NCBI GenBank assembly: GCA_963768855.1
Contig: CAVYJM010000006.1
Coordinates: 192,001 to 256,000, forward strand
Direction of reading: 5' to 3'
Origin: an uncultured Thermoplasmata archaeon
GTDB taxonomy: Archaea > Thermoplasmatota > Thermoplasmata > RBG-16-68-12
DNA length: 64,000 nucleotides
Shown piece after piece: positions 58,130 through 64,000 of this stretch. A model generated the notes under the pieces. The model made no database searches. It saw only the letters and a list, made by a program, of their open reading frames with translations, and was not told the DNA's origin. Both the position numbers and the translations under genes were made by a program. The number at the start of each line of letters is the position of its first letter. The first letter of the stretch is position 1.

Positions 58130-59359
58130 GTGAATAATTATCTCCCGAGCAGCGGCGCTTCCCACGCGGACGCGATGCGGGCACGCTTAAGTGGCCTCAC
58201 ACCGTTTCGGGGAGGCGTGGCGGCGGGCCTCGTCTACCATCCGGACTACCTGCGGTACGACTTCGGCGGTGACCACGCCCTGCGGCAGCTCCGAGTGCGC
58301 CTGGCCCGCGATCTCATTGCCGACTACGGCCTCCTCAAGGAGGCGGAGGAGATCCTTCCCATCCCCGCAGGGCCGGAGGCGGTTGCCCGCGTCCACACCG
58401 AGGACTACCTGTCCGTCGTGAAAGACCTGAGCGTCCACCCGAAGGGTGCGGCCTACCAGCACGGCTTGGGCACTGCGGACAACCCGGTGTTCGAGGGGAT
58501 GTACGAGGCGACCCTGCTCCACGTCGGCGGGACCCTGCGCGCCTGCGAGGAGGTCGCTTCCGGCCGCCGGACTCGCGCGATGACCCTGGGAGGCGGCTTC
58601 CACCACGCGATGCGCGACAAGGCGTCCGGGTTCTGCATCTTCAACGATGTGGCGGTGGGCATTCAATCCCTCCTGGAGGACCACAAGCTCCGGCGGATCC
58701 TCTATGTCGACATCGACGCCCACCATGCGGACGGCGTCCAGTCAATCTTCTACGAGGATCCGCGCGTCCTCACGATCTCTCTCCACGAGGACGGTCATTA
58801 TCTCTTCCCGGGGACCGGGTTCACGGACGAAATCGGGGCCGGCGAGGGACGTGGGTATGCGGCGAACGTGCCGCTCCCTCCCTACACCCGGGACGTGTCC
58901 TACCTGTACGCGTTCCAGGAGATCGTGCCCCCGCTCGCTCGCGCGTTCAAACCGGAGCTGATCGTCAGCCAGCTCGGCGCGGACGGTCACTATCTCGACC
59001 CGCTCACGCACCTCATGCTCACCACGGAGACCTACGAGGCCGTCGGCATGATGCTCGACGGACTCTCGAAGGAGCTCTGCGGCGGTCGCTGGATCGCGAC
59101 GGGCGGCGGCGGCTACGAGGTCACAGCGGTGCCGCGCGTTTGGACGGTCATGTTCGCCACGATGAACGGCCGCGAGCTCGAGGACGCGCTGCCCGCGGAG
59201 TGGCTCAGGGAGTGCAACCACCTGGCGGGCTCCGTGCCTCCGGACAAGTCGCTGCGGGACCACGTGCACGCGGAGGAGGAGACCCATGTTCCTCGCGCCG
59301 CGAAACGCGTCGTCGACGAGCTCCGCAAAACGCTGTTCCCTCTCCACGGAATCCGGTGA
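58130..59359 (+). CDS. acuC: Histone deacetylase family / acetoin utilization protein AcuC
   Basis: GGGFHHA, SGFCIFND, YVDIDAHHADG, GADGHYLDPL, GGGGY; true start may be downstream. Confidence 0.92.
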   Translation: MNNYLPSSGASHADAMRARLSGLTPFRGGVAAGLVYHPDYLRYDFGGDHALRQLRVRLARDLIADYGLLKEAEEILPIPAGPEAVARVHTEDYLSVVKDLSVHPKGAAYQHGLGTADNPVFEGMYEATLLHVGGTLRACEEVASGRRTRAMTLGGGFHHAMRDKASGFCIFNDVAVGIQSLLEDHKLRRILYVDIDAHHADGVQSIFYEDPRVLTISLHEDGHYLFPGTGFTDEIGAGEGRGYAANVPLPPYTRDVSYLYAFQEIVPPLARAFKPELIVSQLGADGHYLDPLTHLMLTTETYEAVGMMLDGLSKELCGGRWIATGGGGYEVTAVPRVWTVMFATMNGRELEDALPAEWLRECNHLAGSVPPDKSLRDHVHAEEETHVPRAAKRVVDELRKTLFPLHGIR

Positions 59360-59698: not shown

Positions 59699-61258
59699 AT
59701 GACCAACGACGAGGTCGACGAGAAGGTGTCCAAGTCGGCGGAGGATGTGCGCGATGAGTTCGAGGAGAAGATGGACCGGCTCCGTCGCCAGTACGAGCGG
59801 GACCTCCACTCCTTCCGCTACGAGATTGAGGAACGGGAATACCGCCTCAAGGCGTACGAGGACAAGTTCAACAAGATCAAGCAGCCCCCGCTCCTGTACG
59901 CCTACGTCATCCGCAAGGAGGGGCCGGACATGGACGGAAACCAGGTCGTGGTCGCCCGCGCCACAGAGCTCCTGAAGGTCTCCACCGGCCTCGCGGACAA
60001 GACCCAGCTCCAGGTCGGACAGTACGTGTGGGTGCACCCCCAGACCTACGCGATCGTCGAGGGGAGTGCCGTCCGCAACGAGGGAGTGATCGCGAAGGTC
60101 GTGGACATGATCGACGGCAAGCTCGTCGTGTCGGTCGAAGGGGACATGGAGAAGCGCCTCGTGTCGTGCGACAAGTCCGTGTACAAGAAGCTGAAACCCG
60201 GATTCCAGATCAGCGTGCTTCCTCCGACGATGGAGGTCCTCGACATCCTCCCGAACTTGGAGGTGAAGTCTCTCCTCCTCGGGGAGAAGCCGAACGTCTC
60301 CTATGCGGCGATCGGCGGGCTCTCCGAGATGATTGAGCGCATCAAGGACGTCGTGGTCCTGCCCTACCGCGAGGCGAAGCTGTTCGAGCAGATCAAGCTC
60401 GAGGCCCCGCGCGGCATCCTGCTCTACGGCCCGCCGGGCTGCGGCAAGACCCTCCTGGTGAAGGCAATCGCCACGGAGAACGACATGACCTTCTTCAACG
60501 TCAGCATCGCGGACGTCCTCTCGAAGTGGGTGGGGGAGTCCGAGCGGATCATCAAGGAGATTTTCCGCCAGGCCCACGAGAAGAAGCCGAGCATCGTTTT
60601 CTTCGACGAGATCGAGGCCCTCTTCACGGTCCGGGGGATGATGGACACGTCGGGCGTGCACAAGAACATCATCGCTCAGATCCTGAGCGAGATGGACGGC
60701 CTGGTCCGCCTGCATGACGTGTTCGTGATCGGAGCGACGAACCGCGCGGACCTCGTCGACCCCGCGTTGCTGCGGCCCGGACGCTTCGACGAGATCATCG
60801 AGATTCCGAGGCCCGAGCGGGCCGCCGCGGAGGAGATCCTCAAGATTTACCTGACGGACGACCTGCCGCTCGCCGTGGACGTGGTCCAGGAGTACGGCGG
60901 CCGCTCGGAGGCCGCGCAGGGTCTGCGGCGCTTCGTCCTGGACGAGCTCTATGGCGAGAACAAGTGGGTCAAGGTCAAGCTGGACGCCGAGGCGAACGAG
61001 GCGATCAAGACGGTCAAGCGGAAAGACATCATCTCCGGCGCGATCATCGAGGCCATCATCAAGACGGCGAAGAAGAACTACGTGAAGCGTGTGATCGCCC
61101 TGAAGAAGGGCGACCGGAAGAAGGAGGGCCTGACGGCGCGGGACCTCGAGATGGCCATCGAGGAGGAATGCAAGGAGCACGCGATCACGGAGATGTACAT
61201 CTACGAAAAGCGGCAGCGGGAGGTCTTCCGGACCGGCGCGGACCCGATGGTCGGGTGA
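59699..61258 (+). CDS. arc: ARC/Mpa-type proteasomal AAA+ ATPase
   Basis: N-terminal coiled coil, QPP, two OB-like segments, VSYAAIGGL, GPPGCGKT, KWVGE pore loop, FFDEIE, LLRPGRFD, ARC-type insertion and SGAIIEAIIKTAKK helix. Confidence 0.85.
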   Translation: MTNDEVDEKVSKSAEDVRDEFEEKMDRLRRQYERDLHSFRYEIEEREYRLKAYEDKFNKIKQPPLLYAYVIRKEGPDMDGNQVVVARATELLKVSTGLADKTQLQVGQYVWVHPQTYAIVEGSAVRNEGVIAKVVDMIDGKLVVSVEGDMEKRLVSCDKSVYKKLKPGFQISVLPPTMEVLDILPNLEVKSLLLGEKPNVSYAAIGGLSEMIERIKDVVVLPYREAKLFEQIKLEAPRGILLYGPPGCGKTLLVKAIATENDMTFFNVSIADVLSKWVGESERIIKEIFRQAHEKKPSIVFFDEIEALFTVRGMMDTSGVHKNIIAQILSEMDGLVRLHDVFVIGATNRADLVDPALLRPGRFDEIIEIPRPERAAAEEILKIYLTDDLPLAVDVVQEYGGRSEAAQGLRRFVLDELYGENKWVKVKLDAEANEAIKTVKRKDIISGAIIEAIIKTAKKNYVKRVIALKKGDRKKEGLTARDLEMAIEEECKEHAITEMYIYEKRQREVFRTGADPMVG

Positions 61259-61261
61259 GCG

Positions 61262-62560
61262 ATGAAGAAGATGGTCCAGGGGACCGAGCACGAGTACACC
61301 CTGTTCTGTCGCAGGATGGGGTCGATGGGGTTCGATCCCCACACCGTGGCGCTGGATCTGCTCCGCGAGAGCGACCTCCACCTCGCAGGCGAGTACATCA
61401 CGAACGGCTCGCGCGTCTACTACGACGTCGGGCACTTCGAGGTCAGCACGGCCGAGACGACGAACTTCCACGACGTCGTCGTTTGGGAGAAGGCCGGGGA
61501 GAAGGTCCTCGACTGGCTCCGCCGGGTCATGGAGGACAAGTACACGGACGGGTCCACGAAGATCCACGCGTTCAAGAACAACACCTCGCCCGACGGCACG
61601 TCCTACGGATCCCACGAGAACTACTGCGTCGCTCGCGGCGTGCCGTGGCCGGGCCGCTTCGTCCGGGACCTCGTCCCCCATCTCTCGACGCGGGTTATCT
61701 ACACCGGCGCGGGCGACATCATCCGCGGAAAGTACGTCCTGTCGCCGATGGCCTTCCTCACCTCCCAAGTGATCAGCGGGGAGACGATGCACGACACGGG
61801 CATCCTGAACACGCGCGATGAGCCGCATGCGGACGGCCGCCTCTGGCGTCGCCTGCACGTCATCGTGGGGGACGCCCTCATGAACGAGACGGCGATCATG
61901 CTGCGCCACTTCACGACCTCCGCCGTCCTCCAACTCATGGAGGCGGACGGCCTGAGGGACGTGCCCCGACTCAAGGACCCCGTCCGCGACCTGTGGCACA
62001 ATGTCGAGACCCGGATCCCGGACCAGTGGCGGATCGAGCTCGAGGACGGATCCGTCGTGTCTCCGATCGACATCCAGCGGTACTATCTCTCAAAGGTCGA
62101 GCCGCTGGTCGAGGACGCGTGGGAGAAGCGCGCCCTGAAGACCTGGGAGGAGGTCCTCGACGACCTGGAGAACCGGCGGTCGAAGGAGGCCGCCCACCGC
62201 GTCGAGTGGCTGGACCGATGGTTTGCCATCCAGGCCGCCACGGAGGACAAGGAAGGCCCCGACGTCGAGATGATGGCGTGCAAACAGTACTCCGAGATCG
62301 GTGCGGAGCGCTCCCTGTTCTACAAGAGGCAGAGGGAAGGCCTCGTCGACCGGATCACGGACGACGAGACGATCAAGGCCGCGATCACGACGCCACCGGA
62401 CGACACCCGTGCACGTCTTCGCCGGGAACTTTGCGACACCTTCAATATCGAGATGATTGATTGGTCTGTACTGGTCGTGAACGACGGGAGCCGGCGGCGG
62501 ATCGATCTTCCGGATCCGTACGCCACAAAGTTGGAGGCGACCTATGCCACTGCAGGTTGA
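61262..62560 (+). CDS. pafA: Pup-ligase/deamidase (PafA/Dop) family enzyme
   Basis: GTEHEY, TNGSRVYYDVGHFE, FKNN, SYGSHENY, NTRDEPHAD, RRLHVIVGD, PPDDTRARLR, IDW. Confidence 0.93.
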   Translation: MKKMVQGTEHEYTLFCRRMGSMGFDPHTVALDLLRESDLHLAGEYITNGSRVYYDVGHFEVSTAETTNFHDVVVWEKAGEKVLDWLRRVMEDKYTDGSTKIHAFKNNTSPDGTSYGSHENYCVARGVPWPGRFVRDLVPHLSTRVIYTGAGDIIRGKYVLSPMAFLTSQVISGETMHDTGILNTRDEPHADGRLWRRLHVIVGDALMNETAIMLRHFTTSAVLQLMEADGLRDVPRLKDPVRDLWHNVETRIPDQWRIELEDGSVVSPIDIQRYYLSKVEPLVEDAWEKRALKTWEEVLDDLENRRSKEAAHRVEWLDRWFAIQAATEDKEGPDVEMMACKQYSEIGAERSLFYKRQREGLVDRITDDETIKAAITTPPDDTRARLRRELCDTFNIEMIDWSVLVVNDGSRRRIDLPDPYATKLEATYATAG

Positions 62561-62720
62561 GGAGAAGCCGAAGAAGCGCAAGAAGCAGGAGAAGAAGCTA
62601 GAGTTCGAAGCGGGAAAGGTCTTCAGCCCGGGTGAAGTGAAGGAAGAGGACTTCGAGCTCGACCTCGACTCGGCACGGTATCGGGCATCGAAAGGGGAGG
62701 GCGGCGATCGCCGCGCTTGA
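62544..62720 (+). CDS. Pup/UBact-like small charged protein with 6-residue C-terminal extension
   Basis: My translation MPLQVEEKPKKRKKQEKKLEFEAGKVFSPGEVKEEDFELDLDSARYRASKGEGGDRRA*; GGAGG RBS at 62533-62537; overlaps ligase stop; not in ORF track. Confidence 0.7.
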   Translation: MPLQVEEKPKKRKKQEKKLEFEAGKVFSPGEVKEEDFELDLDSARYRASKGEGGDRRA

Positions 62721-62783
62721 ACCCGCCCGCAGCGACCGCACCGGCGTAACTCTTTATGGCCCGCGGCGTTTCCCGCCGCCTGC

Positions 62784-64000
62784 ATGGCCACCCACGTGGA
62801 CACCTTGGAGAACGGCCTCAAGGTGATCCTCCGCCCCATGCCGGACACGAAGGCCCTCTCTTGCTGGGTCACGTACCGCGTCGGCTCCCGCAATGAGGTC
62901 CCCGGCATGACCGGCTCGACGCACTGGGTCGAGCACATGCTGTTCAAGGGAGGCGGGAAGCTCAAGAAGGGCGAGATCGACCGCCTCATCAGCCGGGTCG
63001 GCGGCAAGATGAACGCCTTCACCGACACGGACTTCACGACGTACTTCGAGACAATCCCCGCGTCCGAGATGGACACGGCCCTCATGATCGAGTCCGAACG
63101 GATGCGGAACGCCGCCTTCGATCCGAAGGAGGTCGAGGCGGAGCGGACCGTCGTGATCAGTGAGCGGGAGGGCGCGGAGAACCAGCCCGAATTCCTCGCC
63201 GAGGAGGAGCTCTGGGGCCTCGCCTTCCACGTGCACCCGTACCACTGGACCGCGATCGGGTACAAGCAGGACCTGGCCAAGCTGGACCGCGACCCTCTCT
63301 ACCAGCATTACCTCCGGTACTACGCGCCGAACAACGCGTTCCTCGTCCTCGTGGGCGGCTTCGACCCTGCGGTCGCGATGCAGCACATCCGGGAGTCCTT
63401 CTCGCCCCTGAAGCCCGAGCCGATCCCTCCGGTCATGCGCCTCGTGGAGCCGGAGCAGCACGGGGAGCGCCGGAGTGACCTCGAACGGCCCGGGGCGACG
63501 GACCTCTTCAGCGTCGGCTGGCACATCCCGCCGTTCGTCCACGAGGACACGCCCGCGCTGATCCTCCTCGCGACGATCCTGGGCGGTTGGCATGGGCTCA
63601 CCCCCTTCGCCGCGGGCGACTGGCACTCCCGCTCAAACCGGCTGTACCGTGCGCTCGTCGACGCGAAGCTCGCGACGGACGTCGGCGTGCGGCAGGAGCT
63701 GAAGCTCGACCCCGCGCTCCTGATCGTCAGCGCGACCCTCGCGGGCAAGATTCCGCTGGACCGGGTCGAGCACGTCCTGGACCGCGAGGTGGACCGCCTG
63801 CGCAAGGCCCCGCCCTCCAAGGCGGAGATGGACCGCGCGAAGCGGCAGGTTCGCTCGTGGTACCGCTACGAGCACGACGGGGTGACGTACCAGGGGATGC
63901 TCCTGTCCACGCTCGAGGCCCTCTCCGGCTGGGATGCGGGGGAGGGCATCCTGACGAAGGTCGACCGGCTCCGGCCGAACCACGTGCGGGAGGCCGCGCG
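62784..64000 (+). CDS. M16 family zinc peptidase (pitrilysin-like), truncated by window edge
   Basis: LENGLKV, YRVGSRNE, HWVEH (HxxEH), MNAFT; TTTAT 27 nt upstream; not in ORF track because no stop in window. Confidence 0.92.
   Translation, partial: MATHVDTLENGLKVILRPMPDTKALSCWVTYRVGSRNEVPGMTGSTHWVEHMLFKGGGKLKKGEIDRLISRVGGKMNAFTDTDFTTYFETIPASEMDTALMIESERMRNAAFDPKEVEAERTVVISEREGAENQPEFLAEEELWGLAFHVHPYHWTAIGYKQDLAKLDRDPLYQHYLRYYAPNNAFLVLVGGFDPAVAMQHIRESFSPLKPEPIPPVMRLVEPEQHGERRSDLERPGATDLFSVGWHIPPFVHEDTPALILLATILGGWHGLTPFAAGDWHSRSNRLYRALVDAKLATDVGVRQELKLDPALLIVSATLAGKIPLDRVEHVLDREVDRLRKAPPSKAEMDRAKRQVRSWYRYEHDGVTYQGMLLSTLEALSGWDAGEGILTKVDRLRPNHVREAA

Follow-up and report, generated by a model that had tools for sequence, protein, structure and literature searches.

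Pup, which works with PafA, Dop and the ATPase Mpa/ARC in Actinobacteria (PF05639/TIGR03687; PDB 4BJR, 7OXY), and UBact, a Pup-like small protein of Nitrospirota, Verrucomicrobiota, Planctomycetota and other Gram-negative phyla (NF033388), are the described protein modifiers closest to the system reported here. The literature regards pupylation as an invention of bacteria. The reports that we searched place it in Actinobacteria, Nitrospirae and, sporadically, other bacterial phyla and do not mention archaea; archaea are likewise not mentioned by Hecht et al. 2020 (PMC7947786), who describe a single-copy Dop/PafA homologue in some Planctomycetes. We analysed a stretch of 64,000 nucleotides (in the following, the window) from the genome of an uncultured Thermoplasmata archaeon (contig CAVYJM010000006.1, positions 192,001 to 256,000), in which the gene of an ARC-type ATPase, the gene of a single Dop/PafA-type enzyme (the ligase) and a 58-codon open reading frame (ORF) follow each other. 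The small protein encoded by this ORF is co-inherited with the ligase and appears to share the reactive-site logic of Pup and UBact without a detectable sequence relationship to either. It is probably the cognate partner and tag of the adjacent enzyme, and we see an even chance that it is an archaeal Pup-like tag with an internal reactive Glu/Gln, whose C-terminal tail is present when the enzyme acts on that residue (E/Q52).

The ORF begins with an ATG at 62544, ends with a TGA at 62718-62720 (positions in the window) and shares the last 17 nt of the Pup_ligase gene. Its product, MPLQVEEKPKKRKKQEKKLEFEAGKVFSPGEVKEEDFELDLDSARYRASKGEGGDRRA, is 58 amino acids (aa) long and contains 10 K and 10 E, charged residues making up half of the protein, which is probably disordered. 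A basic N-terminus is followed by a KLEFEAGKVF block, an acidic DFELDLDSA block and the C-terminal end ...ARYRASKGE-GGDRRA. An initial annotation of this DNA had described a K/E-rich ORF directly after the ligase gene with GGAGG 6 nt upstream, and our reading of the sequence confirms this description. The ORF had also been called unannotated, which holds in so far as named relatives are recorded only as 'hypothetical protein', but the exact protein and its relatives are already present in public collections.

An ORF of this size is in itself not unusual, as 78 ORFs of at least 40 aa occur in 10 kb of this GC-rich DNA. Short ORFs being common in such DNA, the reality of the gene has to be judged from conservation. 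In all 25 loci of relatives that have downstream sequence, the ORF comes after the ligase gene, and it recurs in 61 further public loci from metagenome-assembled genomes (MAGs), directly 3' of the ligase gene wherever the locus includes one. Among 32 distinct 58-codon orthologue DNA versions, third codon positions vary while the amino acids are fixed: four Gly codons are used at G53 and four at G54, both Asp codons at D55 and all six Arg codons at R56, and the stop always falls at codon 59, as TGA, TAG or TAA. Judged by these codon patterns, the small gene is real and under purifying selection through its tail. The synonymous variation together with the fixed stop indicates that the six residues after E52 are translated and selected, and excludes a sequencing error or read-through artefact. 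The abundance of short ORFs could suggest a chance ORF or an assembly artefact, but the probability of either is negligible, since more than 60 independent assemblies carry the ORF with synonymous-only variation and a fixed stop, and public gene callers predict the identical 58-aa product. Loss of the ORF or its motif from orthologues, or a stop directly after the Glu codon, had been named at the outset as signs that would speak against the proposed pro-modifier; instead, orthologues keep both ORF and motif, and independent assemblies keep the six extra codons. It likewise holds, as first noted, that shifting the G-run by one base gives no cleaner ending, as the shifted frame has no nearby stop.

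Contigs from four soil RNA libraries (two studies) carry relatives that are 85-95% alike to the ligase 3' end and the small ORF, one of them reading ...FKAQKGEGGD; they stem from other strains, and the libraries may contain DNA. The genome of the window (G000; L and P numbers below are locus and protein identifiers of this analysis) has one copy of the small gene. Related public records are labelled Thermoplasmata, 'Methanomassiliicoccales' or Thermoplasmatota MAGs. Sample labels give soil depth or aquifer for some isolates, and wetland or freshwater-sediment metagenomes for runs containing the window stretch.

The small gene and the ligase gene occur together. In a sample of 401 genomes drawn evenly from the phylum Thermoplasmatota, both genes are found in 21 and neither in 378; one genome (72% complete) has only the small gene, and in another nothing but a fragment of the ligase gene, at the end of a contig, is present. 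Among 41 genomes of relatives from the order, both are present in 29 and neither in 9, the latter including all seven genomes (86-95% complete) of two families, while two have ligase fragments only and one (53% complete) the small gene only. Related genomes are not independent, and these co-occurrences are given as counts rather than as a statistical test. All through the order, the small gene either overlaps the ligase gene or comes directly after it. In family f23, which belongs to another class of the phylum, the two genes are located on different contigs or far apart and still co-occur. Conserved adjacency and co-occurrence support the initial view of a small charged partner of the adjacent PafA/Dop-type enzyme.

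By the available family models the small protein is outside the Pup and UBact families; it would work like them but defines a family of its own. Neither the ORF nor 22 orthologues match the Pup models PF05639/TIGR03687 even at E up to 10, PF05639 has no match in the whole genome at E up to 1, and a PDB sequence search with the family profile (E up to 10) yielded no Pup chain and no other match. The UBact model NF033388 does not match the ORF either; its only match in the genome lies elsewhere and is unrelated (E 0.16). Scans of the ORF together with its 22 orthologues and the 81 wider relatives described below against Pfam, NCBIfam and PHROGs returned nothing relevant, and an ESM Atlas feature search with the family returned no usable match.

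The likeness to Pup lies in build and organisation. Both proteins are small, charged and probably disordered, and both are encoded right after a Dop/PafA-family gene that itself follows the gene of an ARC-type ATPase; pup after dop is the established gene order in Actinobacteria. Both have an aromatic residue, then four residues, then G-[E/Q], with E and Q alternating between close relatives, and the C-terminal part of the archaeal tag is likewise predicted at the active site of the enzyme. Pup, however, ends in G-G-[Q/E], whereas the archaeal E/Q is internal, with a conserved G-G-D-R-R-x behind it. A basic N-terminus (KKRKK) in the archaeal tag contrasts with an acidic one in Pup, and one enzyme without a Dop-loop stands in place of the pair of Dop and PafA. 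In contrast to the Pup system, the archaeal operon has no proteasome genes, and its host also has PAN and 20S genes. UBact ends in ...Y-R-Q-R-[T/S]-G-[E/Q], in which the spacing from Y to E/Q is the same as in the archaeal tag, but it terminates at E/Q, which the archaeal family never does. The resemblance of ARYRASKGE to the ends of UBact and Pup, noted in the initial annotation, stands for the [F/Y]-x4-G-[E/Q] spacing and for the alternation of E and Q, as in Pup, but not at the level of a match to either family model.

A search with the orthologue profile against 1.84 billion representative proteins yielded 96 clusters, of which 81 were kept after removal of junk. The 81 representatives share a basic N-terminus, a [LV]xFxxGxVF block, an acidic DFDLDLD-like block and then [F/Y]-x-A-x-[K/H]-G-[Q/E]-[G/A]-G-[D/T/N/S]-R. 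Position 51 is G in 80 of them and position 54 in all 81, while position 56 is R in 80; at position 52, 56 have Q, 24 have E and one has P, and at position 53 G and A occur in 39 each. The tail past position 52 comprises 6-77 residues, never fewer than six, and varies only beyond R56; no member ending at E/Q was found among the 81 representatives or in any locus examined. In the order, the GGDR[R/K]x tail varies no more than GE does. In the second class of the phylum the protein ends ...FQGKKGQAGTRTKAxx, and [G/A]-G-x-R is conserved in both classes, between which the ligases share only about 50% identity. Some long tails open with a poly-Gly run and carry Cys-rich segments. In the distant members P0024, P0030, P0042, P0071 and P0077, CxxC-type Cys clusters follow the poly-Gly linker, as if a small zinc-binding module had been fused C-terminally to the G-[E/Q]-[G/A]-G-x-R motif. 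When longer forms were sought, nothing but 14 rare proteins (108-164 aa, at most five member sequences each) came up; they look like mis-called starts or read-through and were rejected as true fusions. Two long profile matches (P0091, P0096) were likewise discarded as unrelated repeat proteins.

This distribution of conserved and variable residues bears on the question of whether the tail is removed before the tag is used. The initial annotation took the protein for a pro-modifier that needs maturation, for which a conserved GE and a variable tail were predicted. In that form the proposal is not supported, as the tail is near-invariant, which would be unexpected of a pro-peptide that is thrown away, no member ends at E/Q and no protease is a conserved neighbour; the predicted variability is absent within the order and appears only past R56 in the wider family. 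As an explanation that we consider rather unlikely, an unlinked protease would cut after G-E/Q and expose a C-terminal Glu/Gln for canonical Pup chemistry, with G-G-x-R serving as prime-side recognition site. The length past R56, which ranges from 1-2 to more than 70 residues and in some members includes extra modules as in ubiquitin precursors, is consistent with such cleavage. It is at odds with the invariance of the tail within the order, with the retention of four residues after E/Q across both classes and with the lack of any natural member ending at E/Q; moreover, a cap in addition to a Gln that needs deamidation would amount to a double lock. The precursors of ubiquitin, SUMO, NEDD8 and Atg8 likewise carry extra residues after the reactive one, which the long tails with other modules in distant archaeal members recall. 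They differ, however, in fold and in their alpha-carboxylate chemistry, as opposed to the side-chain carboxylate presumed for the archaeal tag. The tails of ubiquitin-type precursors are poorly conserved, whereas the first four tail residues of the archaeal tag are near-invariant and no dedicated protease is linked to it.

Position 52 alternates between E and Q. When the state of the adjacent tag is mapped onto a maximum-likelihood tree of 48 distinct ligases, it needs 9 changes, at least 7 of which are forced by well-supported branches, and some swaps occur between ligases that differ by about 1%. No residue other than E/Q was found at this position in the 70 loci scored. Swapping restricted to E and Q is the pattern expected if a side-chain carboxylate or amide matters, as in PupE/PupQ (PMC12288473). 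PupQ requires deamidation by Dop, a step of which PafA is incapable (PMC12288473), and a single archaeal enzyme that serves E and Q tags should therefore have both amidase and ligase ability; alternatively, residue 52 may be only a hydrogen-bonding contact. The same swaps bear on a non-covalent role, in which the small protein would lie as a peptide in the Pup groove of the enzyme, or on the ATPase, and act as regulator, pseudo-substrate or adaptor without ever being ligated. We judge this role improbable. The family has no Pup or UBact homology, and orphan and ligase-unlinked copies exist, which would agree with it, but a simple contact would be expected to vary more than a residue that is only E or Q over at least seven independent swaps, and the gene position matches the pup-after-dop order.

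The enzyme itself falls short of the cut-offs of both family models, with 261 bits for the PafA model TIGR03686 (cut-off 551) and 256 bits for the Dop model TIGR03688 (cut-off 492), and its profile matches in the PDB score 257 bits for Dop and 224 bits for PafA. NCBI names it 'PafA2 family protein' and JGI 'proteasome accessory factor A'; its homologues among the matches listed are all archaeal. One PF03136-type enzyme per genome was found in E-tag and Q-tag lineages alike, G000 having a single match. The residues E9, E11, R51, Y53, D55, E60, H118, R185, H189 and H199 are invariant in 26 archaeal ligase sequences. A hand alignment maps them onto Dop E8, E10, R90, Y92, D94, E99, H155, R227, H231 and H241, which form the metal-, nucleotide- and phosphate-binding and catalytic set (PMC8599861); by this alignment the archaeal enzyme keeps every active-site residue named for Dop. 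Keeping the complete catalytic set implies that the enzyme needs some carboxylate or amide substrate, which is a further point against a purely non-covalent partner.

The Dop-loop (40-65 residues before strand beta2) is absent from the archaeal enzyme, which resembles PafA in this respect and in which about 40 residues lie between E11 and R51, compared with about 80 in Dop, and the alignment to Dop begins only at Dop residue 72. The single-copy enzyme of Planctomycetes is, like the archaeal one, related about equally to Dop and PafA, but it partly aligns with the Dop-loop (PMC7947786). The alpha-loop region of the archaeal enzyme is Dop-like (SGET..NTRDEPHAD). In Dop the terminal residue of the tag is tightly held by Thr217 of the alpha-loop, and in PafA the alpha-carboxylate of the last Pup residue is weakly held (PMC8599861). 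Given this weak hold in PafA, an extension beyond the reactive residue is not barred on chemical grounds.

Binding of the small protein to the ligase is predicted by a complex model of these two proteins with ATP and Mg, for which alignments of 26 rows (ligase) and 22 rows (small protein) were used and which provides contacts only, no coordinates. The complex has an ipSAE of 0.82, compared with 0.00 for the best of three controls; of 80 solved complexes, 58 attain the ipSAE mark, and of 110 mismatched pairs, 2 do so. Between the model runs, agreement in contacts is 81% or higher, and the partner has a pLDDT of at least 67. On the ligase the predicted interface comprises residues 11, 13, 15, 55-58, 107-118 and 175-180 and thereby takes in the strand of the catalytic Asp55 and the alpha-loop; on the small protein it spans residues 17-56. 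The middle and C-terminal parts of the small protein are accordingly predicted to lie on the enzyme, near its active site. PafA-Pup and Dop-Pup complexes have already been solved and part of the ipSAE score may therefore be recall, though the tag has no detectable Pup similarity. The inclusion of residues 53-56 in the predicted interface argues against a disposable tail. Predicted binding says nothing on chemistry, however, and is to that extent compatible with a partner that is never ligated.

In the reading that we favour, with an internal reactive residue, residues ~17-56 of the tag would bind the enzyme and bring K-G-[E/Q]-G-G-D-R to the active site, where the side chain of E52 would be the group acted on. 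In Q-bearing relatives the same enzyme would either deamidate this side chain beforehand or transamidate it directly. G-G-D-R would be a functional part of the motif that is present at the encounter with the enzyme and not a disposable pro-peptide; selection on the tail codons and the near-invariance of the tail indicate that it is neither a sequencing error nor a neutral pro-peptide. We infer that the tagging is covalent, that E/Q52 is the residue that reacts and that the tail is present during catalysis. That the tail also stays on the conjugate makes up somewhat more than half of this reading but, taken by itself, is less probable than not and is proposed tentatively. Possible, but short of probable, is also that one enzyme of ancestral Dop/PafA type both deamidates and ligates, joining the internal Glu/Gln to lysines with the tail kept and so producing a branched, Y-shaped tag.

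Several observations weigh against an internal reactive site. All characterised PafA/Dop chemistry acts on a C-terminal Glu/Gln (PMC12288473, PMC8599861), and this preference of the canonical enzymes for a terminal residue also favours cleavage after G-E/Q. The archaeal enzyme has a Thr (T175, hand alignment) at the place of Dop Thr217, by which Dop grips the terminal residue; together with the Dop-like alpha-loop this means that the enzyme could want a free C-terminus, such as a protease would expose. In distant members the part after R56 is long, variable and often composed of a poly-Gly linker followed by a Cys-rich segment, which recalls cleaved ubiquitin fusion precursors. No sequence relationship between the family and Pup or UBact is detectable, and neither the pose of the E52 side chain toward ATP nor the path of the tail can be read from a contacts-only model.

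A further route, put forward purely by chemical analogy and highly improbable in our view, would be self-processing: the ligase would activate the E/Q52 side chain, the adjacent Gly amide would attack to form a glutarimide, and the tail would be released or re-routed before transfer to lysine. E/Q is always followed by small residues (G/A, then an invariant G), a context that favours imide formation, and a single enzyme without a conserved protease would suit this route. It is, however, without precedent in the PafA/Dop family, and no data specifically require it.

Use of the tag with its tail attached would overturn two assumptions, namely that this enzyme family needs a C-terminal glutamate and that ligation and deamidation require separate enzymes. 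A tail retained on the lysine conjugate would create a branched linkage geometry that is not described for any protein modifier in the literature searched. With a tail that is trimmed instead, the protein would be the first pro-modifier of Pup type. Both outcomes have a bearing on the evolution of Dop and PafA from one enzyme and are testable with two recombinant proteins.

Table 1. Features of the putative tag locus and its surroundings, in window positions.
Feature	Position	Strand	Basis
HDAC-family amidohydrolase, 5' of the ATPase gene	58130..59359	+	PF00850 E 4e-90
ARC/Mpa-like AAA ATPase, 519 aa, first gene of the module	59699..61258	+	TIGR03689 pup_AAA 353 bits (under cut-off), PF00004, PF16450 OB domain
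PafA/Dop-family carboxylate-amine ligase/amidase, 432 aa	61262..62560	+	PF03136 E 1e-89
GGAGG ribosome-binding site, 6 nt 5' of the ATG	62533..62537	+	sequence reading
Pup-like small protein P0001, 58 aa	62544..62720	+	conservation, codon pattern, ligase co-occurrence, predicted ligase binding
Core motif K50-G51-E52-G53-G54-D55-R56, E52 the presumed reactive residue	62691..62711	+	near-invariance, E/Q swaps
Tail GGDRRA, six residues after E52	62700..62717	+	codon usage, fixed stop
M16 peptidase, first of a pair	62784..64000, continues to 64064 beyond the window	+	PF00675 + PF05193

According to gene calls and family models, the genes of the ATPase, the ligase, the 58-codon ORF and an M16 peptidase are arranged in a row on the + strand (Table 1). 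The ATPase gene lies directly 5' of the ligase gene in every locus of the order with enough upstream sequence. In the other class it is near the ligase gene in some loci, and none is present within ~8 kb in others. The GGAGG upstream of the small ORF is retained in most orthologues, the same stretch also coding for the C-terminus of the ligase. An antisense ORF of 396 codons (62090-63280, - strand) covers the ligase gene's end and the M16 gene's start with the small gene between them; because third-position variation tracks the + frame, we regard it as a shadow ORF of GC-rich DNA and not as a gene.

The second M16 gene ends at 65317 (window numbering), and the pair begins 63 bp 3' of the small ORF. 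This closeness, which is shared by the closest relatives, would supply a candidate protease for cleavage of the tail. The M16 pair adjoins the small gene (63 bp to ~1.7 kb), however, only in those loci that resemble the window most closely and, judged by identity of ligase and small protein, belong to the same genus; in the order's other families and in the other class none was found within 6-8 kb. Where it is absent, the neighbours are a winged-helix regulator, a metallophosphoesterase and a signal-peptide peptidase, among others. No protease gene common to the ligase/small-gene loci was found among the neighbours across the order and the other class, which is a further argument against a tag matured by cleavage, though compatible with a protease encoded elsewhere. 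Being adjacent only in the closest relatives, the M16 pair was rejected as a conserved maturase or partner.

The HDAC-family gene is upstream of the ATPase gene in most loci of the order (48-82% identity) and unlinked in the other class. HDAC-type enzymes hydrolyse N-acyl-lysine amides, and a role of this amidohydrolase as de-conjugase is conceivable, though pure speculation. In the other class, a winged-helix (MarR/IclR/TrmB-like) gene of ~110 aa is located directly 5' of the ligase gene (L140:8184-8513, L142:8109-8429, L144:8425-8766), which suggests dedicated regulation of the ligase there.

G000 also has PAN (TIGR01242, 591 bits, above cut-off), Cdc48-type ATPases and five PF00227 proteasome-subunit matches; the places of these genes include C6:508755-509831, C11:143825-144379 and C11:8055-8597. 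With bona fide PAN and proteasome subunits present, the ARC-type ATPase is to be seen as an addition to a complete archaeal proteasome set rather than as a replacement.

Some relatives possess a second, orphan copy of the small gene (L084:6001-6159, L085:6001-6159, L086:6001-6162, L081:20-172, L068:1534-1707). These copies are 53-63% identical, end in ...AQKGEGGDRRx or ...MKGQGGTRRS and have no ligase or ATPase gene nearby. In L085, the only such locus examined, mevalonate-pathway and amidohydrolase genes are the neighbours. Overall the neighbours of orphan copies (HMG-CoA synthase, thiolase, amidohydrolase, TFIIB, HNH-repeat protein) are uninformative.

The protein P0062 (121 aa; L092:129-494, a Logan contig) reads KGQAGTRRKGGGGG followed by ~55 more residues. 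Its gene is part of a run of short, overlapping, co-directional genes, including those of RlaP and MazG-like products, an arrangement that resembles viral DNA; no relative turned up when IMG/VR was scanned with the KGQAGTR subgroup. A MAG labelled Aenigmatarchaeota contains a homologue (L087:5926-6216; ...KGQGGDRGSGDGPEGY...) with a long tail, beside TFIIB and HNH-repeat genes and with no ligase gene within 6 kb, which may reflect a binning error or a transfer. Other distant members lie on short, ligase-free contigs, one next to a PCNA gene (L093:267-569) and another convergent with a PmbA/TldD peptidase pair (L094:1163-1438).

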